This document shows, piece by piece, positions 4,689-53,290 of a stretch of DNA of 64,000 bases. The stretch comes from Escherichia coli (GTDB lineage: Bacteria > Pseudomonadota > Gammaproteobacteria > Enterobacterales > Enterobacteriaceae), in assembly GCF_001677475.2 (NCBI RefSeq), contig NZ_CP015229.1. One strand, written 5' to 3'. The translations under genes were made by a program, and so were the position numbers. A model generated the notes under the pieces. The model saw nothing but the letters and a program-made list of their open reading frames with translations, had not been told where the DNA came from and ran no database searches. How positions within the stretch are numbered: position 1 is the stretch's first letter; each line of letters starts with the position of its first letter.

Positions 4689-5099
4689 TCACAAAATGGC
4701 GGTCGTTAATCGTGACGAACAGCACAAACGCCCTTTCTCATCGAAGATTTCAATCTGCCAGACCTGGTGACGCGAACCGAGATGCAACGGTTTGCATACG
4801 CCGCGCACCCGCCCTTCTCGTGCCGAGCGGACGTGGTTAGCATTGATTTCCAGACCAACTACCTTTTGCTCACCTTCGGTACATAAATAACCGGCAACGG
4901 AACCGATACTTTCGGCCAGTACCACGGATGCCCCTCCATGCAGCAACCCGAAAGGCTGCTTTGTCCGCGAGTCTACTGGCATTGTCGCTTCAAGGGTGTC
5001 ATCACCAATATGTTCAAAGCGAATATCCAGTAACCCCACCATGTTTCCTTCACCCATGGCATTCAGTGCTTCCAGGGTGATTTTTCGTTTCCATATCAT
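4689..5099 (-). CDS. menI: 1,4-dihydroxy-2-naphthoyl-CoA hydrolase (hotdog-fold thioesterase)
   Basis: 136-aa ORF; hotdog thioesterase-like; synteny (ydiI position). Confidence 0.85.
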   Translation of the reverse strand: MIWKRKITLEALNAMGEGNMVGLLDIRFEHIGDDTLEATMPVDSRTKQPFGLLHGGASVVLAESIGSVAGYLCTEGEQKVVGLEINANHVRSAREGRVRGVCKPLHLGSRHQVWQIEIFDEKGRLCCSSRLTTAIL

Positions 5100-8000
5100 T
5101 TAATAATCTCAAGTAAAGCCTGCACAGGATGGCGTACCCCCGTGCCTTCAACCCGTTTGACCTGACTACGGCAGGAATATCCGGTCGCCAGACAGCGGTT
5201 ACGCGGCAGTCGCTGCATCGCCTGATGCCAGGATAACTCATAGATCCCGAGCGAATTTTTATGGTTTTTCGCTTCATGTCCGTAAGTCCCTGCCATGCCG
5301 CAGCAACCCACGCTGACATTTTCCAGTTTCGCGCCAAAACGGGCAAATATCGCGGCCCATTGTGCTGGCGCGCCCGGCAAAGCGGTAACTTCGGTACAGT
5401 GACCAAAGAAATACCATGATTCACCGCTGACTGTAGCCACTGGCTGTGAGTCAAGTGCGCTTGCCAGCCATTCATTCGCCAGTAAGACGTTAAACTCGCC
5501 ACGTTCCTCGCCCAGCGCCAGTTTATATTCATCGCGATAACAAAGTACCAGCGCCGGATCGACGCCCACCATTGGCATCCCCAGCTTCGCCACACGGTTG
5601 AGGAAATCCGCCGTCTTTTTCGCCGTCTTCGCAAAACGATTAAGAAAGCCTTTAATATGCTGGGCTTTGCCATTTGGCGAAAATGGCAGTAACACAGGCT
5701 GGAAACCTAATTTTTCGACCAGACGGACAAAATCCGCCACCACTTGCGCATCGTAATAGCTGGTAAAGGGGTCCTGCACCACCAACACCGTGCGCGCTTT
5801 CTGCTCTGCATTGAGAGCTTCAAGCTGTTCCAGCGTCATGTTTGCCGAGCGATGCCCCACCATTTGTTGTTGTAGCGAGGGGACCGACAGCAGCGGCAAA
5901 TCAACCATGCCGATATGTTTTTCCGAGAGTTTGCGCACCAGCGGCTGGTTAATGAAGAAGTTAAAGGTTTTCGGCGCGCGTGCCATCAGCGGTGCGTAGC
6001 TCTCGACCGTAGCGACGAGGTGGTCGCGCAGCGGGCGTAAATAACGGGTGTGATAGAGCTGCAGGAAACGAGAGCGAAACTCCGGCACATCAATTTTGAT
6101 GGGGCACTGGGTCGAACAAGCTTTACAGGCCAGACAGCCCGACATCGCCTCTTTGACTTCGTGTGAGAAATCATATTCGCCTTTATTCGCATGCCAGCTA
6201 TTGCGCGTGCGGGCAATTAACGTCCGCAAGCTGACGCCGGATTCAGGCAGTTCTTGTTCCAGTTTGAGTGGGTCAACGCCGCGATCCGCCAACAAACGCA
6301 GCCATTCACGCACCAGCGTTGCGCGCCCTTTAGGTGAATGAATCCGGTTCTGGGTGATCTTCATCGACGGACACATCGGACTACGGGCATCAAAGTTGAA
6401 GCATAAACCGTTGCCGTTACACTCCATCGCACCACGCCACTGCTGGCGTACCGCAATGGGGATCTGCCGGTCGAATGTACCGCGCTTCACCGCGTCCACT
6501 TTCATCATCGTTGCATCGAGACCTTCTGGCGGGCAAATCTTCCCTGGGTTGAGTCGGTTATGCGGGTCAAATGCCGCTTTCACTTTACGCAGTTCTGCAA
6601 AAAGTTCCTCACCGAAAAACGCCGGGCTGTATTCGGCGCGAAAACCTTTGCCGTGTTCGCCCCACAACAAACCACCGTATTTCGCAGTCAGCGCCACCAC
6701 GTCATCAGAGATTTGCTTCATCAAAATCTCTTGTTGCGGATCGCACATATCCAGCGCTGGACGTACGTGCAAGACACCTGCATCGACGTGACCGAACATA
6801 CCGTAGCTTAAGCCGTGGCTGTCGAGCAGCGCGCGAAATTCAGCAATATAATCCGCCAGGTGTTCCGGCGGTACGCAGGTATCCTCAGCAAACGGAATTG
6901 GCTTAGCGGCACCTTTGGCATTGCCAAGCAGACCAACGGCTTTTTTGCGCATCGCATAGATACGTTCAACACCCGCCAGCTCGCGGCACACCTGCCAGCC
7001 GATCACTCCTGCCTGTTGGCTGGCAATCAGCTCATCCAACCGCACACAGAGTGCATTAACTCGCTCGTCAATCAGTGCCTCATCATCACCAGCAAATTCC
7101 ACAATGTTCAGCCCGAGCATCTCTTTGTCAGGCACATCGGTAATCAACTCGCTGACGGAATGCCAGACAATATCTTCCCGCGCCAGATTCAGCACTTTTG
7201 AGTCCACCGTCTCTACCGAAAGCGCCCGCGCCTCAACCATAAACGGCGCGTTACGCAGCGCGGAGTCAAATGAGTCATATTTAACGTTCACCAGACGGCG
7301 CACTTTAGGCAAGCGCGTAATATCCAGCCGCGCTTCGGTAATAAAGGCCAGCGTTCCTTCTGAACCCGTCAGAATGCGCGTCAGGTCGAACTCGGTCATC
7401 TCATCGTTAAAGACATGACGCAGATCGTAACCGGTAAGAAAGCGGTTAAGTTTGGGAAATTTGTCGATGATTAACTGCCGTTGCTGACGGCAGCGTTGAT
7501 AAACCGTTTTATAGATACGCCCGATAGCTGTATTGGTTTTGCCCAGCGTTTCCGCCAGCTCGACGGGTAAAGGTTGCGTATCGAGAATATCCCCCCCCAA
7601 CAACACCGCCCGCACGCCGAGCACGTGATCTGACGTTTTACCATAGACCAGCGATCCCTGACCGGAAGCATCGGTATTGATCATCCCGCCGAGCGTTGCC
7701 CGGTTGCTGGTCGAAAGTTCTGGTGCAAAAAAGTAGCCGAACGGTTTCAGGTACTGGTTAAGCTGATCTTTAATAACCCCCGCTTCAACGCGCACCCAGC
7801 CCTCTTCAGGGTTAATTTCGATGATGCGGTTCATATGACGGGACATATCAACAATAATCCCCTGGTTGAGCGCCTGACCGTTAGTGCCGGTGCCGCCACC
7901 GCGCGGGGTGAAGATCAACGATGAATAGCGTTCCTGCGCAGCCAGACGGGCGATTAATGCCACATCTGCGGTCGAACGCGGAAATACCACTGCGTCGGGG

Positions 8001-40378: not shown

Positions 40379-40768
40379 ATGATTGACGCTCATGACTTCA
40401 CAAGATGGGTGCGCACACAGGACACCCGTCTGGCTCCCGTTCTTCAGGGATTATTTGATCTTTACATCCGTGGTCGTGACAACAGAGCACGCACTACAAA
40501 ACCGGAGAATGCGGACACCCTTTATTTCACAGTAGACGACTGCTACCGCGTGGACTTCACACCACACGGGCTGGCGTTGCACTGCCTGACACCACACGGC
40601 GAATCACTGCTGGCGTATTACGACTCCCCGGCCTCCGTATTTGCGGCAATGCTGGCGCATCGCACTGCTGGCGGGTGTGCCTCGCTGAGTGAATACACCG
40701 CTGAATTTAACCGCCTTTCCGCCATCTTCTCGCAGGAGTGGCAGCGCGTGACGGGATACCAGCCATGA
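40379..40768 (+). CDS. phage early protein, unknown function
   Basis: 129-aa ORF; stop overlaps gpA start (ATGA). Confidence 0.5.
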   Translation: MIDAHDFTRWVRTQDTRLAPVLQGLFDLYIRGRDNRARTTKPENADTLYFTVDDCYRVDFTPHGLALHCLTPHGESLLAYYDSPASVFAAMLAHRTAGGCASLSEYTAEFNRLSAIFSQEWQRVTGYQP

Positions 40769-43605
40769 GTGAGTTTGCATGGAGCTGGAATGAACCACGG
40801 CCAGCCATTGATCCGGCCAGATTTACGGAGCGCAGGCAGGAAACTGAAACCGACCTGCAACGCGCCATCCGTTACTACCTTGAGGCAGACAAAAGGGCAC
40901 AGGAAGAACAGGAAGCGAAGGAAGAAGCCTTTTTCGCACAATCCACCGTGGGTAAAAAACTCATGGCATCCCTTGAGGAAGCCGGACAGCGTGAAAAGCT
41001 GGCACAGAGCATCATCAGTAAGCGCCGGGCAACAGAACAAGACACGGTAGCCCGTGCCTTTGCCACACTAAAGGCACTACCTGTTTATCTGCGTGAACCA
41101 CTGAGCCGCCACCTCTCTTTCCTGCGCAAAAAACAGGAAGCCGATCGCCGGAAAGGCAAAAAGAGCTGGCAGGCGGAACGCTATGCACGCGGAACCCTGC
41201 GCAAAATATTCGAACGTCTGGACCGCACCGACAGCCGCTGGCTGACACCGGGTTATCGCGCCCTTGCCGGACGCGAACGCCTGGACGATTTGCTTTACCT
41301 GCCGCAGCTCAACAAACACCAGATACAGACGCTGGCCACCATGACAGCGGCGATGTTCAGCAGCACCTTCGAAAAACTCTGCGATGGCTTTGGCGCGACT
41401 GATGGCGAGCTGACCATGGATGTAACGCTGAAGGCGTATCAGATGCTGGCCCGCATGGCGTTACACCTGCACGCCATGCCTCCGCATTATGACGTACTGA
41501 CAACAGACAAAGACCGGAGGAACGAACCAGACACAGAACTGCTGCCGGGCGCAATCCTTCGCCTGACCTGTGCGGAATGGTGGAAACGCAAACTGTGGCT
41601 GTTACGTTGCGAGTGGCGGGAAGAACAACTCCGAGCCGCCTGTCTGGTTTCCAGAAAAACATCGCCCTATCTGAGCCAGGACGCGTTAAGCGAGTTTCGC
41701 GCACAGCGCGAGAAAACACGCGATTTCCTGAAAAGTTTCATGCTGGAAAATGAAGACGGGTTCACGATTGATCTCGAGACGGTGTATTACGCGGGAGTAA
41801 GTAACCCGGTTCACCGTAAGGCAGAAATGATGGCCACCATGAAGGGACTGGAACTTCTGGCCGAAGCCCGTGGCGACAGAGCGGTGTTTCTGACCGTCAC
41901 CTGCCCGTCAAAATACCACGCAACAACGGAGAACGGTCATCCGAACCCCAAATGGAACGGGGCCACCATGCGCGACTCCAGCGATTACCTGGTTAACACG
42001 TTTTTTGCGGCGGTCCGCAAAAAACTGAACCGCGACGGCCTGCGCTGGTATGGCATCCGCACGGTGGAGCCTCACCATGACGGCACTGTGCACTGGCATA
42101 TGATGGTCTTTGCACATCCGGACGAGATTGAAACCATCGTGTCCCACGTCTGCGATATTGCCATTCAGGAGGACCGCCACGAGCTGGGCGATGACATAAC
42201 TCCGCGTTTTAAGGCGGAGTATGTCGACGGCTCAAAAGGCACACCAACCAGCTACATCGCCACCTACATCGGAAAGAACTTGGACAGCCGCGCCGTGGAT
42301 GGCATCGACCCGAAAACGGGCAAGCCACGCGTTGACCACGAAACCGGAAAATCAATGGCCGAGAGCGTGGAGCGCGCCATCGGCTGGGCGCGCCTTCACC
42401 GGGTCCGTCAGTTCCAGTTCTTTGGCATCCCCTCCCGTCAGGTGTGGCGTGAACTGCGCCGCCTTGCCAGCCAGATGGCACGCAATCCGGAAGGCCCGCA
42501 ACGGCTGAAAGATGATGCAATGGATGCGGTACTCGCTGCCGCCGATGCCGGGTGTTTTGCCACCTACATTGAAAAACAGGGTGGCGTGCTTGTTCCACGC
42601 AAGGACTACCTGATTCGCACCGCCTACGACCTCGCAGATGAGCTGAACGATTACGGCGAACAGAGCGTACAGATTTACGGGATCTGGTCACCACTCATCG
42701 GGGAATCCTCCCGTGTGTGCACGCATCCGGATAACTGGAAGTTGGTAAGACGTAAACCAGAACCGGAAGACAACGCCCACGAAAATGGTTTTGACCTTCA
42801 GGGCGGCCCTGCCGCCCCTTGGACTCGTGGCAATAACTGTCCCCGTGTACAGGAAACGGACAATAACGGGACAGAACTGCCGGAAGAACGGCCAGCACCG
42901 TGGCCGCAGCTCCCTGACGGCGTTGAAGTGAACGAATGGATGCGCTCACTGAAACAGCACGAACGCCGGGCGCTGATGCGTTCGCTTCGTGACAAACAGG
43001 CAAAAAACAGCAGTGATGAAATGCAGAGCTGGACACAGAGCCGCAAACAGCAGCGGCCTTTGCCTGATAACCACGAATTACTCGCTAAAGAATGGCGGGA
43101 GTCTGCTGAATCTCTCGGCCTGCATATCGGTGAACAACAGATGCAGCACCTGTTACGGGGCGGCAGCCTGTACGTTGACGGCAGCATCATTGCACCGCAG
43201 GGATTTGAAATTGTACGCAAACCGGATACCCGCCCGGACAGCCGAATCACGCAGCTCTGGCAGCGCCTGAGCCGTAATCATGGCGTAAGCAGCACGGAGA
43301 TCCGCCATAACCCGGTCGCCAGCTATCTGGCACAGCTGGGGGCATCAGACCCTGAAGTCGCCGCACGCCTGGCATCCACACTTCAGCAGGACCAGAACAC
43401 CATGAAAACACCCGTTACCGTGCTTTCTGACATGCTGCGCGCCATCCGCGACGCAGAGCACGCACAGAGAATCAGTGAAACCACTGAACGCGCCCGCCGC
43501 AAAGCAGACCTGCTGCGGGGTGGCCTGACCAGTGGAAACAAAAAACAGACAGAAACGGGACTCATGAATCCCGTAAATGAGCAAAAAACGCGCAGCGATA
43601 TATGA
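40765..43605 (+). CDS. rolling-circle replication initiator, P2 gpA-like, with long C-terminal extension
   Basis: ORF 40738..43605; start set at ATG 40765 (MSEFAWSW); HWHMMVF and ATYIGKN motifs typical of gpA-family nicking proteins; 946 aa. Confidence 0.8.
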   Translation: MSEFAWSWNEPRPAIDPARFTERRQETETDLQRAIRYYLEADKRAQEEQEAKEEAFFAQSTVGKKLMASLEEAGQREKLAQSIISKRRATEQDTVARAFATLKALPVYLREPLSRHLSFLRKKQEADRRKGKKSWQAERYARGTLRKIFERLDRTDSRWLTPGYRALAGRERLDDLLYLPQLNKHQIQTLATMTAAMFSSTFEKLCDGFGATDGELTMDVTLKAYQMLARMALHLHAMPPHYDVLTTDKDRRNEPDTELLPGAILRLTCAEWWKRKLWLLRCEWREEQLRAACLVSRKTSPYLSQDALSEFRAQREKTRDFLKSFMLENEDGFTIDLETVYYAGVSNPVHRKAEMMATMKGLELLAEARGDRAVFLTVTCPSKYHATTENGHPNPKWNGATMRDSSDYLVNTFFAAVRKKLNRDGLRWYGIRTVEPHHDGTVHWHMMVFAHPDEIETIVSHVCDIAIQEDRHELGDDITPRFKAEYVDGSKGTPTSYIATYIGKNLDSRAVDGIDPKTGKPRVDHETGKSMAESVERAIGWARLHRVRQFQFFGIPSRQVWRELRRLASQMARNPEGPQRLKDDAMDAVLAAADAGCFATYIEKQGGVLVPRKDYLIRTAYDLADELNDYGEQSVQIYGIWSPLIGESSRVCTHPDNWKLVRRKPEPEDNAHENGFDLQGGPAAPWTRGNNCPRVQETDNNGTELPEERPAPWPQLPDGVEVNEWMRSLKQHERRALMRSLRDKQAKNSSDEMQSWTQSRKQQRPLPDNHELLAKEWRESAESLGLHIGEQQMQHLLRGGSLYVDGSIIAPQGFEIVRKPDTRPDSRITQLWQRLSRNHGVSSTEIRHNPVASYLAQLGASDPEVAARLASTLQQDQNTMKTPVTVLSDMLRAIRDAEHAQRISETTERARRKADLLRGGLTSGNKKQTETGLMNPVNEQKTRSDI

Positions 43606-43681: not shown

Positions 43682-44641
43682 ATGAAAATTTGTATCGACG
43701 ACGGCTCCACCAACATCAAGCTGGCATGGACTGAGAACGGCGAACGCCGCAACGCCATCAGCCCGAACAGCTTCAAGTCGGAATGGTCTGCGCCGTTCGG
43801 TGGCACGCAGCCCGCGAACTACATGCTTGATGGCGTGCGCTATGGTTTTGATCCGGTCAGCGATCGCTTTGTCCAGACGACCGACACGCAATACCAGTAC
43901 AGCGATGTGAATGTCATTGCCATTCATCACGCGCTGGTCAAATCAGGCATCACGCCACAGGAGGTGGATGTGGTTGTCACCCTGCCACTGAGCGAGTATT
44001 TCGACACAAACGCACAGCCGGACATGGCCAACATCAACCGCAAAAAAGCGAACGTTATGCGCCCGGTGGAGTACCAGAACGGCGAAGCATTCACTATCCG
44101 TAACGTGCGGGTTATGCCTGAATCCATTCCGGCTGGCTTTAAGGCACTGGCTGACATGAGTCCGTTTGAATCCCTGCTGATTGTAGATTTGGGCGGAACC
44201 ACGCTGGATGTGGCAAAGGTTCAGGGGCAACTGGCAGGTATCAGCCAGGTGTTTTGCGATCCACACGTAGGCGTTTCTCTGATGGCCGATGCCGTACTGT
44301 CGGTGATGGCCACTAACGGTATGCGCACCAGTCACCACATCGCCAATACCATTATCGAACATCGCCATAATGAAGCCTGGCTGCGCCAGCACATCCACAA
44401 TGACGCGCATTACGCCAGCCTGATGGAGGTTATTCGTGAAAAGGAAGAAACACTGAAACAACGCGTGATCCGCGCGCTGGCGGGTTTTTCGGGTTACGGG
44501 CGGGTGATGGTTGTCGGTGGAGGGGCGGAGATTGTGGCACCCGCTATCCGCGAAGCCTGCGGAGTTCATGCGACTTTCATCGCGGACGGGGTGCCACAGT
44601 TTGCTCTGGTTAATGGGCTGTACGCAATGGACAAGGAGTAA
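43682..44641 (+). CDS. actin-like ATPase, ParM/StbA family
   Basis: 319-aa ORF; motifs DDGSTNIKL, SPNSFK, YSDVNVIAIHHAL, MPESIPAG, DLGGTTLD, VVGGGAEI align with plasmid R1 ParM as I recall it. Confidence 0.85.
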   Translation: MKICIDDGSTNIKLAWTENGERRNAISPNSFKSEWSAPFGGTQPANYMLDGVRYGFDPVSDRFVQTTDTQYQYSDVNVIAIHHALVKSGITPQEVDVVVTLPLSEYFDTNAQPDMANINRKKANVMRPVEYQNGEAFTIRNVRVMPESIPAGFKALADMSPFESLLIVDLGGTTLDVAKVQGQLAGISQVFCDPHVGVSLMADAVLSVMATNGMRTSHHIANTIIEHRHNEAWLRQHIHNDAHYASLMEVIREKEETLKQRVIRALAGFSGYGRVMVVGGGAEIVAPAIREACGVHATFIADGVPQFALVNGLYAMDKE

Positions 44642-44645
44642 ACCA

Positions 44646-44957
44646 ATGACGACACCAACCAGACGGATAAGTTTCTATCTGAAGCCTGCGGCCGTCAAGA
44701 ACGAAAGCGAAGCATGCGCCTGGCTGGACAGCCTTACACCAGAAGCCCGCAAAAGCGGCCAACGCGTGGCTTTTCTGGCCGGGCTGGCACTTCTGAAAAT
44801 GAATCCGGCAGAGGCTTACCGACTGGCTGCATGGGCTGACGATGAGGCGTTATCAGTGACACAAACCAGGACAGAATGCCCCGCGTCACAGCCAGTATCA
44901 ACCGCACAGATAACCAGTCAGATGGCCGGAAATATCCGGGCGTTATTTCCCGAATAA
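44646..44957 (+). CDS. ParR-like centromere-binding/repressor protein
   Basis: ATG 44646 with GGAG RBS, 103 aa; RRISFYLKP...AWLDSLTPEARKSGQRVAFLAGLAL resembles R1 ParR N-terminal RHH region; immediately downstream of parM-like gene. Confidence 0.7.
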   Translation: MTTPTRRISFYLKPAAVKNESEACAWLDSLTPEARKSGQRVAFLAGLALLKMNPAEAYRLAAWADDEALSVTQTRTECPASQPVSTAQITSQMAGNIRALFPE

Positions 44958-45020: not shown

Positions 45021-45356
45021 ATGCAACACATTGACAGAGAAAAAGCGCAGCGACTGATTGAGCGAATGGAAGCGCTGGCGAAAGAAGAAAATGTCAACAT
45101 CCAAAAAATAGCTGAATGTGGCCAGATAGTTCTTCGTCGTGAAAAAGACATCAAGCAACTGATGTCTGGCGAAATCAGCAAAACATGGACTTCAGGCAAG
45201 AAGACGATTTATTGCAGCTTCTGCAATAAATCCCAGCACGAAGTCATAAAGGTGATTGCCGGACCGTCTGTTTACATCTGCAATGAGTGCGTGGATTTGT
45301 GCAATGAAATTATCAGAAGAGAAGTGACAGACCATGAAGAAAAAACGCATGAATGA
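45021..45356 (+). CDS. ClpX-type C4 zinc-binding-domain protein (novel N-terminal helical region fused to ClpX-like ZBD)
   Basis: 111-aa ORF, GGGGGA RBS; residues [38 protein letters not shown] closely match E. coli ClpX N-domain (about 32 of 39 residues by my recollection); no AAA+ module. Confidence 0.8.
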
Positions 45357-45943
45357 CGAATTTGACGGCTTTTAATTTTATCGGGGCACACTGTCTCCCC
45401 CCGCACGAGGAAAACACGATGAAAAAATACGAATACATGCTAATGAAAGAAGCACTGCGGGCTGGTCTGGCTCCCTGTCCTGTATCCGTAGAAGCTGTTG
45501 TTGGGAACACGATTTTCCGAACGCTGCGAAATCGCGTATCCGTGAAGATGATTCACCAACCACCCAAATCTACCAGCATGATCTATCTGCCGCTGCCCGA
45601 GGCTATCAAACTTATGCGTTCGCTGAAATTTGCGATTTGGATGCAGACACAACTCAACAAAGCGGTGCAAAACACCTTCGTTAAGAAACTGATGCCGGAG
45701 CTTGCTGCCAGATGTGCAAAATGTACCAGACCCGCACTTCAATTTGATCTGTCATTGATTCAACAAGCTACGGAGGCAGAACTGTACCGCCTGTCACCTC
45801 TCCATGATGTTCACACGGAAGCCTCAGAAATGTTCCGGCTCATGTTTCAATTTAATTTTGCCGTTCGACGCACACGCGTTCAGGTCAATCGCATGATGCA
45901 GGCGCAGGAAGAGCTGACGCAACACAAAGGAGGCAACCAGTGA
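45353..45943 (+). CDS. hypothetical protein, translationally coupled to ZBD gene
   Basis: ATG 45353 overlaps upstream stop (ATGA); alternative start ATG 45416 with GAGGAA RBS; no recognisable motif. Confidence 0.55.
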
Positions 45944-46464
45944 GCAAGATTGACTATCAGGCATTACGCGAACGCTATTCACCTGCGCCAGTACCGAAAT
46001 GCCCTATTTGCGGCGAGGAAATGTCAATTCAGCGAATATCTGGAGCACAGGTTGTTTATGCCTGCTCCGGTTATGGTGATGATGGAGATTTCAAAATTGG
46101 TCGAACTCTTGCCGACGAACATTATGAAAAATCGCGCGTAACAGTGTTGGATGTCGGGGATCCTGAAGTATTGGCGCTACTTGATTGGCTGGAAACTAAA
46201 GACAACCGAATCGCTGAACTGGAAAAAATCGCCACTGACTATGCACTTAAATTCCAGAAAGCACAGGACGCATTAAAGCATGCCGCTTTGCTGCATAGCC
46301 GGACGGCGCAACAAACAAATAATTTTGCAGTATCGCTTCCGGACATAAGCGAATATTTCATTAATGACGTATTTCAGCCCTTGCGATACGAGCGGGATGT
46401 TGAAAGAGCCATCATAAAGGCTGGCGGAAAAGCATTGTGGCAGGAGAAACACGACGACAGATAA
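45940..46464 (+). CDS. hypothetical protein with N-terminal Cys-rich (zinc-ribbon-like) segment
   Basis: GTG start overlapping upstream stop (GTGA) with AGGAGG RBS; CPICGEE...YACSG; 174 aa. Confidence 0.55.
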   Translation: MSKIDYQALRERYSPAPVPKCPICGEEMSIQRISGAQVVYACSGYGDDGDFKIGRTLADEHYEKSRVTVLDVGDPEVLALLDWLETKDNRIAELEKIATDYALKFQKAQDALKHAALLHSRTAQQTNNFAVSLPDISEYFINDVFQPLRYERDVERAIIKAGGKALWQEKHDDR

Positions 46465-46516
46465 AAATAACACCTGATCTCCCTCAAACCAGGGCGATAA
46501 TCGCGCATCGCCCTGC

Positions 46517-46543
46517 TGCACAATAGTGCACAAATTTGCACAA
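46517..46543. repeat. three TGCACAA direct repeats at exact 10-bp phasing
   Basis: TGCACAA at 46517, 46527 and 46537; helical-turn periodicity suggests protein binding on one DNA face. Confidence 0.6.
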
Positions 46544-46614
46544 TTTTTTTGAACGACTTTTTGCCCTTCCGGCCCGCGTGGCGGCTGGATCCGTCAAGGA
46601 TCCGTGCGTGCACA

Positions 46615-46630
46615 AAAAAACGCGTTTTTT
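46615..46630. other. perfect palindrome AAAAAACGCGTTTTTT inside phage non-coding block
   Basis: Seen directly; preceded by GGATCCGT direct repeats at 46587 and 46598 and followed by G-rich segment. Confidence 0.6.
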
Positions 46631-46914
46631 CTGCGCGCAGGTGACGGGGGAACAGCCCGCGTTTCAGGGGGTAAATAGCGTTCCCTTAACGATGTCGCAG
46701 CGACACGACAGAATGGCCGTATCGCTCACGCTGAGCGTGAAAAATACGTGAGGGATTCTGATTTGATGGGGTGAAAGGTAAGGCCGTCAAAATCGCACTG
46801 AGGCGGCGAGAACATGCAGTCAGCGCGGTGGGATTGTGTAGAGTCTGGCCGTCGATGATAGCGATAAGTCGGAAGATGTCGTGAAATTATCTGATTGATA
46901 CGGGAGCTGGAGAG

Positions 46915-46941
46915 CCGGGGCATAAATTTTTTATGCCCCGG
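46915..46941. other. perfect 12-bp-stem hairpin CCGGGGCATAAA-ttt-TTTATGCCCCGG
   Basis: Seen directly; no flanking U tract on either strand so not a classical intrinsic terminator. Confidence 0.6.
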
Positions 46942-47041
46942 CGAAGCAGCAGACAAGCGAAGCGCGTCAGTGATGCGGCACCTTGCCGACCACACTTCAT
47001 AAGTGCAAAATACGAGCAAAGAAATCAATGGAGGCTGTTTT

Positions 47042-47566
47042 ATGGTCATTAATTACAAGCAGTTACGAGAAAAACGAGAGCAGGTAAAGGAAAGTTTTCG
47101 CCGCAATGAAGATCTGACCCCGCTTGTACACCTTGCCCAGGGAATTGTTGATGCTTATGAAATCTCTCTGGAGCTGCCATCACAGACATGGACGGATAGC
47201 GACGGTAATCGCCAGCATTACGTTTCATGCGGACTGGAAACAACTGAAGGGTTTCGCAGAATGCCTTTATCTCAGATTCCTGCCGCTACCCCCAAAGCAA
47301 GGGGCGGCAATGATGAGCGAAAACTGATTTTCAGCATTGAGACAGTGGTTGACGACACACCTGGCGAAGTCGCGTTCGTGCATACTCCTCTTTCGATCGC
47401 AATGTATAACGATGAAATACAGGTTCGCGTTAATAATAATATCGTGCCACTTAAAGAAGGTAATTCACCATACACCACCGTTTGTGAAGCCATTCAATAT
47501 TACGTTCTCTCTGAAATTGATAATCTCAAGCCTGACGGCACCCAGAAAATGGTTCAACTCTGGTAA
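47042..47566 (+). CDS. hypothetical protein (orphan gene between non-coding block and portal gene)
   Basis: ATG 47042 with GGAGG RBS (ORF track 47003..47566); followed by strong terminator. Confidence 0.55.
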   Translation: MVINYKQLREKREQVKESFRRNEDLTPLVHLAQGIVDAYEISLELPSQTWTDSDGNRQHYVSCGLETTEGFRRMPLSQIPAATPKARGGNDERKLIFSIETVVDDTPGEVAFVHTPLSIAMYNDEIQVRVNNNIVPLKEGNSPYTTVCEAIQYYVLSEIDNLKPDGTQKMVQLW

Positions 47567-47572
47567 AAAGGA

Positions 47573-47597
47573 CAGCCCCATCACGGGGCTGTTTTTT
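47573..47597. terminator. bidirectional intrinsic terminator between convergent orfZ and portal gene
   Basis: Stem CAGCCCC/GGGGCTG followed by T6 on plus strand and T-rich tract on minus strand; portal stop codon lies in the loop. Confidence 0.7.
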
Positions 47598-48627
47598 CAT
47601 CAAGAAGAGCATAAGAATTAAAACGGATCACCTCTTCGCCAAGCCAGTCATTGATATGCTTCATAGCCTCCATGACGGGCATCAGCTCGTTAATTGCGTA
47701 AACCCGCGCGGCCTTCTCCACATCACCAAACGCACTTTTTTCACCCGGCATCGCCCCCATCAGTTGCGGCGGAACGCGGTGCGCAGCCAGCACATCATCA
47801 CGGGATGCCGCCTTAACATTCATGAACTCATCCTTTGCGGTGATCTGCTGGAACGGCAAAATTTGCACCCCCTCTTTGCCCCCGTTGGGCGCATGAATGA
47901 GCACGTTTTTAAACGCACCACCACCACGCGCACCCTGTAGCGTTTCTTTCAGGGAGTCCATGCTTTCGCGGTTTACCTGCGCTGCACCGATGTAGATGAT
48001 GCACCCGGCGTGGGATCCGTTGTCGTAATACAGTTTTCTGAACATGTCCGCCGAATGAGACAGGCTGGCCGAGAGTAATGCGCCGAGATATTCCGGCATG
48101 CCGTAGATTTCCTGGTTAATGTCAGGATTCATCAGGTGGCACACTTTGCTTGGGCGAAACTGAAACGCGTCCTTGCCATCCTGCACATACCACCATGATT
48201 CAAGATCGCTTCCGCGTCGCATGTATTTCGCCAGGGCGTGCCGTAATTTAAGCGGTTCGCCGAGCATATTGCTTCGAAGCTCAAGGAATGCGTTACCGAA
48301 CACAAACCAGTCCAGCGCCAGCGCCGAGAAATCCTGCCGGGAAAGCAGCGGGTGCGGGATGTAGCAACCGAGTAATACATTGCGCTTAAAGTAAAGCGCA
48401 GACTGATGCCAGGACGTTTGCCGGGCAGCTCTTGCCAGACCGTACCAGTCCACCGGGGTTTCATACCACCGCCCGTTATCAGCACAGTACATATTGTCCA
48501 GCAGGTCATGCCCGGTCAGGCGATAAGGACCATCAAATGTGAATGCACTGAGCGATGATTCTTTCCTGAGCGCATCAGCGAGATCAATGCGTGAACTCAT
48601 GCGCACTTTTTTATTTTTTCTGCTCAT
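47581..48627 (-). CDS. portal protein, P2 gpQ-like
   Basis: 348-aa ORF, leftward, immediately downstream of terminase ATPase gene with ATGA overlap; size and position as P2 Q. Confidence 0.75.
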   Translation of the reverse strand: MSRKNKKVRMSSRIDLADALRKESSLSAFTFDGPYRLTGHDLLDNMYCADNGRWYETPVDWYGLARAARQTSWHQSALYFKRNVLLGCYIPHPLLSRQDFSALALDWFVFGNAFLELRSNMLGEPLKLRHALAKYMRRGSDLESWWYVQDGKDAFQFRPSKVCHLMNPDINQEIYGMPEYLGALLSASLSHSADMFRKLYYDNGSHAGCIIYIGAAQVNRESMDSLKETLQGARGGGAFKNVLIHAPNGGKEGVQILPFQQITAKDEFMNVKAASRDDVLAAHRVPPQLMGAMPGEKSAFGDVEKAARVYAINELMPVMEAMKHINDWLGEEVIRFNSYALLDEKTAP

Positions 48628-50378
48628 CAGAACTCCATAACCGTGAAACGCTCGTTTTCTCCTTCGCCGCCAATCGGTTCGTTAATGACAGCAAGCATGG
48701 TTGCCCACGCAAGGTCGCCGTGGCTGATCCCCCTCGCGCGGTCCGTTTCGTAAGTGATAAAGCCGCCCGGTGTTTTCACCTTACGCACGGCGTTAAAGGC
48801 CGCGACCAGCTCGCGTTCGGCGCGATCGTATTCCCAGCGCCCGGCACGCATTATTTGCAGCATTTTCAGTACCAGCGACCGTTTTGATGACAGCGTGAAG
48901 GTGTACGGAATAGCAGCAGGGAAAAACCGTTTCACTATCTGATAAACAGCCTCCCCGTTCCCGCCCGTCACATCAATGCCGATGTGTTCCACGTTGTAGC
49001 GATACGTGAACTCTTCAATGACTCTGGCCTGTTCTTCAAACTCCAGCCCCTGAACGCGTCGCGTCTCCACCGTTCGAAAACGGCCACCAGGAACAGCCGG
49101 AGGAACCACCACGGACACAGCGCCGCTGTCGCCGTTGCCACTGCTGCCGTTTGCGTCATACCCAATCCATACCAGACGATTCCCCATCGGGCGGGGAGCA
49201 AAAGGTTTCCAGTCTTTCCAGTCGTCGTATCCGTCAACACCGCAGCCAATCAGGATATTCAGGTTAAATGCCGATTCCCCTTCGCGAACAAACTCACACA
49301 TATAGAGATTGAGGAACTCGTCTTCGGTGTTTTCATCACGGATTTCGTCAATATCGGTGTGTTTCCAGCCGTGATTAACCACATCTTCCAGCGTGACAAT
49401 TTGCCGCCACGTCCGGTCAGGGCAGATAAGCCCGTTATGCAGCGTTTTCCAGTCCACAGAAAAACGCTGGCGTTTATGCGAGGCCTTTTTCTCGTTCCAG
49501 CGGTCGCCGTTCCAGTAGGCGTATGCCTCGTGCGTTTCGGTGGATGGCGTGGAGAAGTAGGTGCGCCGCAGTCCGCTGAGGGTTGCCATAGCGCCAGCCA
49601 CCTTGCGCAGTTCAGCAAAGCGACTGACCCAGAAAAATTCATCAAAATAAAAATTGCCCGTATAGGACTGTGCCGACGCAGCAGAAGTGCCGAGAAAATG
49701 CAGCTCTGCGCCGTTGGAGAGGATGATTTTATCGCCCCCTTTCAGCTCCACATCAACTTCAGCCGCGGCCTTCTGAATAATGCTTTTAAACTGGAACGCC
49801 TGACGACGCGACGCAGACAAAAAAATCTGGTTACGCTGGTAAGGTTGCGCCACATCGTCACGCAGCGCCATCAGCAGCGCTTCCTGTGCAAAATACCAGG
49901 TTGCCCCAATCTGTCGGGATTTCAGGATCATCCTGTTACGTATCCCGGCTTCCCTGCAAAGGGTCAGGGAGTCAAACCAGCCCCGCTGATGCCACTCCAG
50001 CCTGCTGATGATTTTTTCCCGCAGTGCGGCAATCTGTTCCGGCGTGAAATGATTTTTGAGTTTTTTCGCCCGGCCTTTCTTTCCTGCGGCCATCACATCC
50101 GGCTGGCCATCATGCAGCTTTTTAAGCTGCCGGGTCAGCAGGTCTATTTCCTTAAAGTCACCGCCTGTTTTATTCTGTTTTTCAGTAAGCTGGATGAGGC
50201 GCGCATCGATGGACTGCGTGACACGCTGCACGGGTGGCGCTTCATCCCACTGGTCGCGTTTTTTCCACGCATAAATCGTGTTCGGGTTTATTCCCATCAG
50301 ACGTGATATTTCTGCGGGCGGATAACCCTGCCAGTAAAGTTGCCGCGCACGCTGGCGCACAAAAGCGTCCTGAATCAT
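48627..50378 (-). CDS. terminase large (ATPase) subunit, P2 gpP-like
   Basis: 583-aa ORF; leftward, divergent from capsid genes as in P2; KSRQIGATWYFA ATPase region. Confidence 0.85.
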   Translation of the reverse strand: MIQDAFVRQRARQLYWQGYPPAEISRLMGINPNTIYAWKKRDQWDEAPPVQRVTQSIDARLIQLTEKQNKTGGDFKEIDLLTRQLKKLHDGQPDVMAAGKKGRAKKLKNHFTPEQIAALREKIISRLEWHQRGWFDSLTLCREAGIRNRMILKSRQIGATWYFAQEALLMALRDDVAQPYQRNQIFLSASRRQAFQFKSIIQKAAAEVDVELKGGDKIILSNGAELHFLGTSAASAQSYTGNFYFDEFFWVSRFAELRKVAGAMATLSGLRRTYFSTPSTETHEAYAYWNGDRWNEKKASHKRQRFSVDWKTLHNGLICPDRTWRQIVTLEDVVNHGWKHTDIDEIRDENTEDEFLNLYMCEFVREGESAFNLNILIGCGVDGYDDWKDWKPFAPRPMGNRLVWIGYDANGSSGNGDSGAVSVVVPPAVPGGRFRTVETRRVQGLEFEEQARVIEEFTYRYNVEHIGIDVTGGNGEAVYQIVKRFFPAAIPYTFTLSSKRSLVLKMLQIMRAGRWEYDRAERELVAAFNAVRKVKTPGGFITYETDRARGISHGDLAWATMLAVINEPIGGEGENERFTVMEF

Positions 50379-52489: not shown

Positions 52490-53290
52490 ATGATTACTCC
52501 TGCACAGCAACACTGGCAGAACGTGATGGCACAGCGCGCAGGCCGGGCGAATGAAGGCGTGGACCACGCCGCGCGTACCGCGCATGAAGAGGTGCTGTAT
52601 CGTCTGCGTCTGGCACAGGCCCGGCTTAAGGGCGTACAGGCCAGAAGCGCGAAAGCCGCCATCAAAAAAGAGTTGTTGCCGGATTTTTCCGGCTGGATTG
52701 AGGGAACGCTGGAGGCTGACGGCGGGCAGCAGGATGAAGTGATTGCCACGCTGATGGTGTGGGCGATTGACTGCGGCGATCTTCCGCTGGCGTTGCGTAT
52801 TGGTGCGTATGTGGTCCGTCATAACCTCATTATGCCGGATAACTTTGGCCGTACTGCTGCCACGGTACTGACCGAAGAAATCTGCAACCCGGTACTGACG
52901 CAGGCCGGGACGGATGCCGACGCGGATTTATCCGCCTTTATCGAACCACTGGATACCCTCCGGGAGATTGTCACCGACCAGGACATGCCGGACGAAGTGC
53001 GCGCCAAATTATGCAAGGCGTGCGCCTTTGCCCGTCGTGGTCTGAGTGATGCGGACAGCATGGCCCTGTCACTGAAGCTGCTGCGCGAAGCAATGCACCT
53101 GAACCCGAACGCAGGTGTGAAACGCGAGATTGCAACCCTTTCCCGCGCCCTGAAAAAAGCCGATTCCGCAGCCGCACCAGAAGACGCCAGCGCACAGCAA
53201 ACGCAGGACGAAAGCAGCAAAAGTAAAAAGACAACGCGGAAGCCTGCAACACGAAAAACCACCGCGACGCAGAAGGCGAAGCGCGGTTAA
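52490..53290 (+). CDS. terminase small subunit, P2 gpM-like
   Basis: 266-aa ORF after capsid gene; acidic/basic C-terminus; position. Confidence 0.6.
   Translation: MITPAQQHWQNVMAQRAGRANEGVDHAARTAHEEVLYRLRLAQARLKGVQARSAKAAIKKELLPDFSGWIEGTLEADGGQQDEVIATLMVWAIDCGDLPLALRIGAYVVRHNLIMPDNFGRTAATVLTEEICNPVLTQAGTDADADLSAFIEPLDTLREIVTDQDMPDEVRAKLCKACAFARRGLSDADSMALSLKLLREAMHLNPNAGVKREIATLSRALKKADSAAAPEDASAQQTQDESSKSKKTTRKPATRKTTATQKAKRG

Follow-up and report, generated by a model that had tools for sequence, protein, structure and literature searches.

The closest described packaging signals are those of phages P2, 186 and PSP3 and of the satellite P4, which have 19-nt 5' cohesive ends (GGCGAGGCGGGGAAAGCAC / GGCGTGGCGGGGAAAGCAT) and a 55-bp conserved core (Ziermann and Calendar, 1990, as summarized in PMC3931495, PMC5694545 and PMC9122126). 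This core includes the element TGCATTAAAAC (PMC3931495, PMC5694545), and cos is the only region that P2 and P4 have in common (PMC9122126). Among phages of more distant hosts and genera, phiRSA1 of Ralstonia has an end, GGTGAGGCGGGGTCC..., that is reported to have been determined experimentally (Fujiwara, 2008, per PMC5694545), while phiCTX of Pseudomonas has a 21-nt end, with repeats R3–R6 annotated around its cos.

Measured from the deposited cohesive ends, TGCA recurs at closely similar offsets in P2 (-123/-111/-101/-29), P4 (-124/-111/-101/-35/-29), 186 (-124/-120/-111/-101/-35/-29), PSP3 (-120/-111/-101/-35/-29) and phiRSA1 (-129/-110/-100/-35/-29), and phiCTX carries YGCAG repeats at -109/-99/-83/-37/-28. 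Although the upstream TGCA array is present in P2, P4, 186, PSP3 and phiRSA1, we found no description of it in the literature searched, nor any of TGCA elements as terminase sites or of terminase–DNA recognition in the P2 family. The same literature yielded neither a cos definition for P88 or Xuanwuvirus nor the sequence GGTGACGGGGG, discussed below.

Prophage context of the non-coding block

Here we analyse a 577-bp non-coding block in a 64-kb window, the whole stretch of Escherichia coli DNA under study (64,000 nucleotides), in which an original prediction had placed a cos site and terminase-binding sites. The block belongs to a P88-like prophage (Xuanwuvirus, Peduoviridae, P2 family) and has the replication/cargo arm on one side and the portal gene on the other, which is the location of cos in the P2 family; the gene order (replication gene, parM/parR-like genes, cargo, block, Q, P, O, N, M) is that of P2, and the Q-P / O-N-M-L head-gene layout is also found in P88, 569R5 and L011, a related E. 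coli prophage form. P88 can be induced. As in P2, 186, PSP3 and P4, the cargo of the right arm is followed by cos and then by Q, in the same orientation. Both cognate terminase subunits are encoded nearby (Table 1), again as for P2, 186, PSP3 and P4: the large subunit occupies the position of P2 gene P and is annotated as terminase ATPase or large subunit in P88, 569R5 and L011, and the gpM homologue is only 36% identical to P2 gpM. Two mechanical open reading frames in the block (46536-46751, + strand; 46726-47049, - strand) are without gene-like signs; the gene that follows has GGAGG 8 nt 5' of its ATG, and this CDS of 525 nt is also annotated in relatives.

Table 1. Features of the block and of the terminase and portal genes, with positions in the 64-kb window.
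Feature	Position	Strand	Basis or remark
Non-coding block, 577 bp	46465-47041		Flanked by the end of ORF 45940-46464 (stop codon) and the start codon ATG at 47042
Very probable cos region of the prophage (complete packaging signal)	46517-46676	+	Conservation boundary, satellite sharing, P2-family architecture
Three TGCACAA, exactly 10 bp apart; proposed small-terminase recognition array	46517-46543	+	Conservation, geometry
Spacer: T-run, GC-rich stretch, GGATCC-N5-GGATCC dyad (46587-46605)	46544-46608	+	Moderately conserved
Fourth TGCACAA with A-tract (TGCACAAAAAAA)	46609-46620	+	90-100% conserved
Perfect palindrome AAAAAACGCGTTTTTT (A6CGCGT6)	46615-46630	.	Lineage-specific variant of the dyad of A- and T-tracts to the left of the predicted nick
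Predicted 19-nt 5' cohesive end GGTGACGGGGGAACAGCCC	46640-46658	+	Homology
Left-arm flank GCGTTTCAGGGGGTAAAT	46659-46676	+	Satellite-island homology stops at 46676
Lineage-specific spacer of the virion left arm	46677-46913	.	Includes a small vestigial ORF (start at 46771)
Perfect hairpin, 13-bp stem, 3-nt loop	46914-46942 (arms 46914-46926, 46930-46942)	.	Position of P2 tQ
Accessory-gene (moron) cassette	46979-47580	+	Insertion flanked by the old tQ hairpin and by Q
Accessory gene, 174 aa	47042-47566	+	phrog_5091 (unknown-function family); in the moron cassette
Bidirectional terminator	47572-47592	both	Part of the moron cassette
Portal protein (gpQ homologue)	47581-48627	-	TIGR01540 portal_PBSX, 216 bits; relatives annotated as portal
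Terminase large subunit (gpP homologue), presumed cos nuclease	48627-50378	-	Position and annotation of relatives
Terminase small subunit (gpM homologue), presumed to read the TGCA elements	52490-53290	+	phrog_74, E = 9e-82

A probable P2-family cos in the left part of the block

We consider it highly probable that 160 bp of this block, 46517-46676, are the cos site of the prophage. P88-like phages are 91-95% identical to the block, which is found in the P88-like prophages of 1,147 of 5,426 complete E. coli genomes, and conservation with these phages and genomes begins sharply at 46516/46517, whatever cargo lies upstream. The placement of cos and terminase-binding sites in the block is supported by similarity of the cohesive end, by the geometry of the TGCA elements and by sharing with a satellite-like island; comparison with P2, 186 and other P2-like cos regions, the check that the original prediction had named, gave near-identical TGCA geometry and a match of 13/19 at the end.

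The motifs of the original prediction were all found where it had put them, including three TGCACAA repeats at exact 10-bp spacing (46517, 46527 and 46537), but a fourth TGCACAA at 46609, on the same strand, 72 bp past the third and 31 bp before the predicted nick, had been overlooked. With 14 copies on both strands against 16.4 expected, TGCACAA is not over-represented in the window, yet it is clustered: four same-strand copies lie within a stretch of 100 bp in the block, while 500 simulations of 64 kb under a first-order Markov model gave maxima of one (421 runs) or two (79 runs) and never three or more. This clustering is far above chance.

The three-repeat array is 90-100% conserved in 111 unique relatives. 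Across 134 unique family sequences, TGCA occurs at -123/-113/-103 from G46640 in 66-77% and at -31 in 90%. These upstream offsets fall within the 100-124 bp 5' of the nick at which two to three further TGCA elements stand in P2, 186, PSP3 and P4, and the fourth element, TGCACAAAAAAA, corresponds to TGCATTAAAAC at -29 in the P2-family core, matching TGCA(Y)(N)AAAA about 29 bp 5' of the nick with a 2-bp offset. A TGCA with an A-tract some 30 bp before the nick is thus common to both groups. They differ in the word and its spacing, the P88-like repeat being TGCACAA at a regular 10/10 bp and that of the P2 group TGCAT at 12-13/10 bp. Likeness extends to phiRSA1, in its TGCA offsets, and to phiCTX, in its YGCAG repeats and in the foreign genes (ctx) that separate its cos from the Q homologue, although phiCTX has other repeat words and another overhang length.

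The cohesive end is predicted here from sequence. The segment 46634-46658 (CGCGCAGGTGACGGGGGAACAGCCC), picked out earlier as a cohesive-end candidate, is present, and comparison supports the choice: a 19-mer within it, GGTGACGGGGGAACAGCCC, is identical to the P2 end GGCGAGGCGGGGAAAGCAC at 13/19 positions. It differs at six, and a search with the P2 19-mer at up to three mismatches gave no match. A 13/19 match alone is at chance level across the whole window and became convincing only through intermediates, namely the L011 form (15/19 against the P2 end), the satellite form (14/19) and the Reipivirus form (14/19). Like the ends of P2, 186, PSP3 and P4, GGTGACGGGGGAACAGCCC is G-rich and begins GGYGA; it fits the type GG(C/T)G(A/T)GGCGGGG... 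but is divergent, and its first five nucleotides are the GGTGA with which the phiRSA1 end starts. The junction at the predicted nick, GCA followed by GG, is as in 186. GCGCAGGTGACGGGGGAACAGCCC is perfectly kept in Enterobacter phage phiT5282H, which is otherwise only 75% identical, and GCGCAGGTGACGGGGG... persists together with the TGCA elements in the Novemvirus phiT5282H and in Klebsiella Reipivirus phages, where the remaining region has diverged; GGTGACGGGGG is invariant in the sampled relatives, partly by construction of that set. By homology, the nicks are predicted before G46640 (top strand) and after C46658 (bottom strand), with an uncertainty of about 2 bp.

No phage record, none of about 120 IMG/VR stretches and none of about 25 cos-bearing metagenome contigs ended at the predicted nick, in one scan each of IMG/VR and of metagenomes, where stored stretches show contig ends unreliably and most metagenome matches were chance ones in GC-rich genomes. 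Only one linear record, LR595891 (P88_4B11), has its ends in the block; its first base corresponds to 46562, which is 78 bp to the left of the predicted nick, and this start is not documented as a physical end.

Two further motifs of the original prediction exist as described and have a narrower distribution. The GGATCCGT direct repeats were confirmed at 46587 and 46598; because GGATCC is self-complementary, the pair also forms a 6-bp dyad with a 5-nt spacer. Both copies are present in 66 of 134 unique relatives, and other lineages have different small dyads at this place (CGCCCggaGGGCG, CCCGgatCGGG, CGGTCtgaGACCG), although a compensatory hairpin check showed only modest enrichment (mean best stem 4.05 against 3.32 in shuffles). 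The perfect palindrome AAAAAACGCGTTTTTT, confirmed at 46615-46630, is part of a longer, imperfect dyad (46605-46619 / 46625-46639, 87% complementary); it is perfect in only 28 of the 134 and imperfect in P88, and both phiT5282H and the Klebsiella Reipivirus phages lack it. The palindrome and the GGATCCGT pair are therefore lineage-specific and not conserved features of the family.

The lambda cos (cosQ–cosN–cosB, with R sites for gpNu1 and an IHF bend) follows the same logic, in that repeated small-subunit sites and bent DNA adjoin a nicking site that yields 5' cohesive ends. The two are without sequence relationship, the lambda overhang is 12 nt, and here the repeat array is on the side of the virion right end. 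The lambda cosN 12-mer GGGCGGCGACCT was not found with up to two mismatches in or near the block, and no IHF consensus was found in 46517-46676.

A satellite-like island shares the probable signal

A satellite-like island of about 12.5 kb (L012/L257) is inserted at gcd-hpt in 53 of 5,426 E. coli genomes; in NZ_CM132658 it spans 4411344-4423858. It carries a primase, integrases, an Icd-like gene, an ogr/Delta-like gene and a P2-type capsid gene of its own, and no portal or terminase gene was found in it. At the DNA level, the island is homologous to the 64-kb window only in 46516-46676 (81% identical) and in 167 bp of an integrase gene, so that 46516-46676 is the only non-coding DNA common to the two. 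The island carries the signal without a terminase of its own, and parallels P4 in sharing cos with a P88-like phage as P4 does with P2; it is satellite-like, and its mobilization is putative.

The remainder of the block

Outside 46517-46676, the block (46677-46913, 46914-46942, 46979-47580) is not packaging signal. The left-arm spacer 46677-46913 is conserved only among P88-like phages, and similarity scores of 46659-46945 against P2, 186, L011, Reipivirus and phiT5282H were at shuffle level. The perfect hairpin noted earlier as a 12-bp stem at 46915-46941 is real, with a stem that is one base pair longer (Table 1) and a folding energy of -29 to -32 kcal/mol (z = -5.8 / -6.7). In P88 about 26 nt separate its end from the stop codon of Q, and tQ of P2 is placed likewise, which suggests that the hairpin is the old post-Q hairpin, the ancestral 3' end of the P-Q operon; the distance from cos to this hairpin is about 275 bp here against about 140 bp in P2. 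As a Rho-independent terminator it was rejected: the GC-rich stem is present, but no T/U run follows it on either strand, and the scan accordingly did not call it.

The gene between cos and Q had been regarded as atypical. This view does not hold, as P2-like phages are documented to have a hotspot for insertions between cos and Q (PMC5694545, citing Dodd and Egan, 1996, and Nakayama, 1999) and the moron cassette that contains the gene occurs in 396 of 5,426 complete E. coli genomes; it is present in 569R5, 705R2 and PhiR44_2 and absent from P88, 4B11 and 520873. The accessory protein had no NCBIfam, PADLOC or Pfam match, and a fold comparison of its AlphaFold model (pLDDT 74) with PDB and BFVD gave nothing at E <= 0.001.

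Alternative readings

The region could be cos and yet be nicked elsewhere, either 2 bp further left (with an overhang from C46638), within A6CGCGT6, or with an overhang other than 19 nt. The 2-bp shift is suggested by the fourth TGCA, which stands 31 bp before the predicted nick, not exactly 29 bp as in P2, P4, 186, PSP3 and RSA1, but by our count it would reduce the match with the P2 end from 13/19 positions to 10/19, and that of L011 from 15/19 to 9/19. Dyad symmetry centred near 46622 would suit a nick in the palindrome, a motif whose scatter among relatives, set out above, is at odds with the constancy of GGTGACGGGGG in the sampled set, constant there partly by construction. The 21-nt end of phiCTX shows that overhang length varies in the family. 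Taken together, we consider a cut other than the one predicted unlikely.

It is far less probable still that the repeats are regulatory or replication/segregation sites, i.e. operators or a promoter for cargo or accessory genes, origin iterons, or a parM/parR-like centromere. Phased 7-mers beside an A/T run do resemble iterons or a parC centromere, and parM/parR-like genes lie at 43682-44957; the array, however, is 1.56 kb downstream of parR, not upstream of parM, and so falls outside that class, and the satellite-like island keeps it without par genes in the regions examined. In P2, P4, 186, PSP3 and RSA1 the array likewise holds its place relative to the cohesive end among unrelated neighbours, with no par module seen near cos. 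The equivalent TGCAT repeats of P2 overlap the region upstream of the old promoter, but a promoter scan of 46517-46676 found nothing, with counts at shuffle level. A different proposal, compatible with cos at 46517-46676, is that 46677-46942 encodes a small RNA or small protein with the hairpin as its 3' end, and we give it little credence. The segment is conserved within the P88 lineage but absent from other genera and from the satellite-like island. For an RNA, the hairpin is very stable, and P88 and 4B11 have T in the left arm where the window has C, which keeps a G-U pair only if the RNA is the + strand; on the other hand, Rfam 15 covariance models gave no match at E <= 1 on either strand of 45500-48000, no promoter rose above chance, and the hairpin lacks a U-tract. 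A small protein was rejected as a candidate, given that its ORF of 42 codons, open in most relatives, is frameshifted in the window and that variation is flat over the codon positions (0.049/0.056/0.060).

Packaging model and implications

Reading 46517-46676 as cos, we suggest that terminase would recognize and cut this region to give unit-length virion DNA with cohesive ends. The small subunit (gpM homologue), whose binding we infer, would read the four same-strand TGCAC(A)A elements, three of them one helical turn apart and the fourth about seven turns on and followed by its A-tract, while shaping or bending of the DNA is probably the part played by the A/T-tract dyad and by the GC-rich spacer, which contains the small dyad. 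Staggered nicks on either side of GGTGACGGGGGAACAGCCC, made by the large subunit (gpP homologue), may then leave 19-nt 5' cohesive ends, a length taken from homology. On this model, the virion left arm would start at 46640 and run through the accessory gene, Q, P and onward, with a predicted left-end read of 5'-GGTGACGG..., and the right arm would end with the cargo genes and the TGCA array, its top strand terminating at A46639.

Because the left 160 bases are almost certainly a P2-family cos, this is a feature expected at such a position; a cos here is what a specialist would look for, and the P88-like variant has had no explicit description so far. The comparison also suggests a testable recognition code for the P2 family, a TGCA array with fixed geometry. 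It is possible, though we would stop short of calling it probable, that in every P2-family cos site the four TGCA elements and their geometry form the code recognized by the small terminase subunit, with the word (TGCAT in P2, 186, P4, PSP3 and RSA1; TGCACAA in P88-like phages, Novemvirus and related phages) setting packaging-specificity groups, and that the P88-type group has an undescribed satellite family of its own, the 12.5-kb gcd-hpt island, with its own P2-type capsid gene and a borrowed terminase, portal and tail. With the signal of about 160 bp known, the true virion ends of prophage genomes can be assigned, satellites that carry cos, and possible cos-mediated transduction, become recognizable, and cosmids could be designed for P88-type helpers, as P2/P4 cos has already been used for packaged cosmids (PMC9942202).

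Prophage setting and limits of the block

The prophage in the window is of the P2 family and P88 type (genus Xuanwuvirus), and the block studied here, with its flanks, is 91–95% identical to phages P88, 520873, 569R5, PhiR44_2, P88_4B11 and Citrobacter phiSM. The block is 577 bp long, bounded on the left by the stop codon of ORF 45940–46464 and on the right by an ATG at 47042. P2 has its cohesive-end site in exactly the corresponding interval, ~165 bp off the Q stop codon, and in P2-like phages the gpA-to-gpQ interval is a cos-proximal cargo hotspot (Rousset et al., PMC9122126).

Features of the window in and around the block
Feature	Position	Strand	Remarks
Replication protein	40738–43605
parM/parR-like genes	43682–44957	+	ParM-like (phrog_691) 43682–44641; ParR-like (phrog_2515) 44646–44957
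Cargo ORFs	to 46464
Block under study	46465–47041
9-bp stem	46490–46515	+	CAGGGCGAT-N8-ATCGCCCTG, perfect
TGCACAA	46517, 46527, 46537, 46609		same strand
GGATCCGT	46587, 46598
A6CGCGT6 palindrome	46615–46630		AAAAAACGCGTTTTTT
Hairpin	46914–46942		arms 46914–46926 / 46930–46942
Cassette	46979–47580		602 bp
Extra gene	47042–47566	+	phrog_5091, 174 aa
Bidirectional terminator	47572–47592		brought by cassette
Portal Q	47581–48627	-
Large terminase P	48627–50378	-
Scaffold O, then capsid N	50500 onward
Small terminase M	52490–53290		phrog_74; 36% identity with P2 gpM

Two features of the cargo side deserve mention. The ParM/ParR-like pair, directly 3' of the replication gene, is kept in P88-like phages and amounts to a plasmid-type segregation module inside an integrated P2-family prophage. 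A 111-aa cargo protein (45021–45356, +) matches the ClpX N-terminal zinc-binding domain in its C-terminal part (TIGR00382, E = 2e-13); it could be a ClpX adaptor or decoy.

Every motif listed in the original prediction was found where it had been placed, including the hairpin, which is perfect as described but has 13-bp arms rather than a 12-bp stem (folding energy -29 to -32 kcal/mol). The prediction had overlooked the fourth TGCACAA. Across the window as a whole the heptamer is no commoner than chance predicts (14 copies versus 16.4 expected); what is unusual is its cluster rather than its total number, with four same-strand copies within 100 bp compared with a maximum of two in 500 Markov-simulated windows. 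The 9-bp stem comes directly after the last cargo ORF and adjoins the first TGCACAA; in P88 this place is taken by another hairpin, whose tail is T-rich. Each cargo set seems to come with a terminal hairpin of its own.

Conservation and geometry of the predicted cos region

Independent of the upstream cargo, similarity with P88-like phages and with 1,147 of 5,426 complete E. coli genomes starts at 46516/46517, where the first TGCACAA opens. All four TGCACAA copies are 90–100% conserved (111 unique relatives). The Enterobacter phage phiT5282H (Novemvirus) aligns at 46517–46661 only, with 75% identity; GCGCAGGTGACGGGGGAACAGCCC is nevertheless perfect there, and none of the four TGCAC(A/G)A elements has been lost. 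Klebsiella Reipivirus phages and L011, another E. coli P2-like prophage, match the window's plan upstream of the portal gene: two to three TGCA-type words ~10 bp apart, a ~70-bp spacer, TGCAC(A/G)AAAA and, ~20 bp later, TGCGCGCA followed directly by GGTGACGGGGGG....

The deposited ends of five reference genomes were joined, and offsets were counted from the base that opens the cohesive end. The distance from third to fourth TGCA element is 72 bp in the window, P2, P4 and 186 alike.

Offsets of TGCA elements from the start of the cohesive end
Genome	Offsets
P2	-123/-111/-101/-29
P4	-124/-111/-101/-35/-29
186	-124/-120/-111/-101/-35/-29
PSP3	-120/-111/-101/-35/-29
phiRSA1	-129/-110/-100/-35/-29
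Window and 134 unique relatives (from G46640)	-123/-113/-103/-31

All five reference right ends carry two to three TGCAT words 100–129 bp before the nick, additional to the TGCA(AC)TGCATTAAAAC element at -35/-29 and outside the 55-bp core cited in papers. In phiCTX (NC_003278 35340–35580), YGCAG words at -109/-99/-83/-37/-28 from its 21-nt end are likely the equivalent of this array; its record annotates repeats R3–R6 spanning cos.

If the small terminase binds specific sites here, the four TGCA elements are the strongest candidates: apart from the nick region nothing is more conserved, they share a strand and roughly a face of the helix, and the word differs (TGCACAA versus TGCAT) between groups whose gpM is only 36% identical. 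The papers searched do not describe them as terminase sites.

A satellite-like island shares the site

E. coli mip270_05 has, between gcd and hpt, an island of ~12.5 kb (NZ_CM132658.1 4411344–4423858) that carries a copy of the site (5001–5161 of the island locus L012). It encodes two integrases, an HTH regulator, an Icd-like protein, a P4-alpha-like primase (phrog_1139), an ogr/Delta-like zinc finger and MazEF. It further has a major capsid gene of its own, of P2 type (phrog_70; 423 aa, extended at the N-terminus), and portal, terminase and tail genes are absent. Across the whole 64 kb, DNA homology between island and window is confined to 46516–46676 (81%) and 167 bp within the integrase gene; in the reverse comparison, P88-like prophages match the island in its cos part only. 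The island, which 53 of the 5,426 complete E. coli genomes contain, looks like a satellite supplying its own capsid protein.

Predicted placement of the cohesive end

The 19-mer GGTGACGGGGGAACAGCCC (46640–46658) is identical to the P2 end at 13/19 positions, compared with 14/19 for both the satellite and Reipivirus forms and 15/19 for that of L011. The window 19-mer opens with GGTGA, and so does the end of phiRSA1, which was reportedly determined by experiment (PMC5694545). By homology, the top strand would be nicked before G46640 and the bottom strand after C46658, leaving a 19-nt 5' overhang. Nicking 2 bp further left would bring back the 29-bp distance that the reference phages show, but it cuts end identity to 10/19 in the window and 9/19 in L011; we therefore prefer the sequence-based placement, with an uncertainty of ~2 bp. 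None of the phage records, IMG/VR stretches or metagenome contigs examined ends at the predicted nick.

Only one linear record, LR595891, ends inside the block, starting at the equivalent of 46562. This cut in P88_4B11 (LR595891.1; window 46561/46562) falls between ...GAACGAATTTT and TGCCCTTCC..., in the cos spacer, 78 bp to the left of where the nick is predicted, and is probably an arbitrary assembly break, carrying no documentation as a real end.

Combined, the conservation boundary, the shared plan in other genera, the reference geometry, the 19-mer and the satellite-like island argue that 46517–46676 is the cos region, supporting the original suggestion that cos lies in this block.

Spacer features

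The A6CGCGT6 palindrome listed in the original prediction proved lineage-specific: it is perfect in only 28 of 134 unique relatives and imperfect in P88, the satellite has an interrupted form (AAAAAACggtgaGTTTTT), and phiT5282H and Reipivirus lack it. The only general feature around it is an A-tract after the fourth TGCAC. The GGATCCGT pair was found in 66 of the 134 relatives, and small-dyad enrichment at this position is modest (mean stem 4.05 versus 3.32 in shuffles). Palindrome and pair are regarded here as features of the spacer, with a possible role in shaping the DNA, rather than as defining elements.

At the offset of GGATCC-N5-GGATCC (46587–46605), other lineages have unrelated small inverted repeats (CGCCCggaGGGCG, CCCGgatCGGG, CGGTCtgaGACCG; observed in L008, L012 and metagenome loci). 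Such swapped dyads hint, with weak statistical support, that structure rather than sequence is required at this place.

Left arm and extra-gene cassette

Conservation of 46677–46913 is limited to the P88 lineage; this arm has no significant similarity to its equivalent in other genera and is missing from the homology with the island. A 42-codon ORF within it (46771–46880, +; VKGKAVKIALRRREHAV...VVKLSD), open in most P88-like relatives, is frameshifted in the window, and its variation among relatives has no codon-position periodicity. An Rfam search of the block gave no match, and promoter-like sites in it are at chance level. In P88, the equivalent of the hairpin lies ~26 nt past the stop codon of Q, the position of the P2 terminator tQ; the hairpin has no U-tract on either strand.

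P88 homology extends to 46978, covering the last bases of the P88 Q gene, and is followed by the cassette, which holds the extra gene, brings a new terminator and gives Q a different C-terminal tail, replacing its last ~12 codons. An extra gene before Q had been considered atypical; it is not, because the stretch between cos and Q has been documented as a hotspot where foreign genes insert, examples being ctx in phiCTX and the retrons of 186 relatives (PMC5694545). The cassette itself occurs in 396 of the 5,426 genomes, or about one in three of those that have a P88-type cos. The phrog_5091 family is limited to Enterobacteriaceae; its product here has no match in Pfam, NCBIfam or PADLOC, and its AlphaFold model (medium confidence, pLDDT 74) no fold match at E<=0.001.

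The literature searched contains no definition of cos for P88-like phages. The feature is a divergent yet recognisable P2-family cos site, expected at such a position; of greater interest are two by-products, the family-wide geometry of the TGCA array and the capsid-encoding satellite-like island with a P88-type cos.
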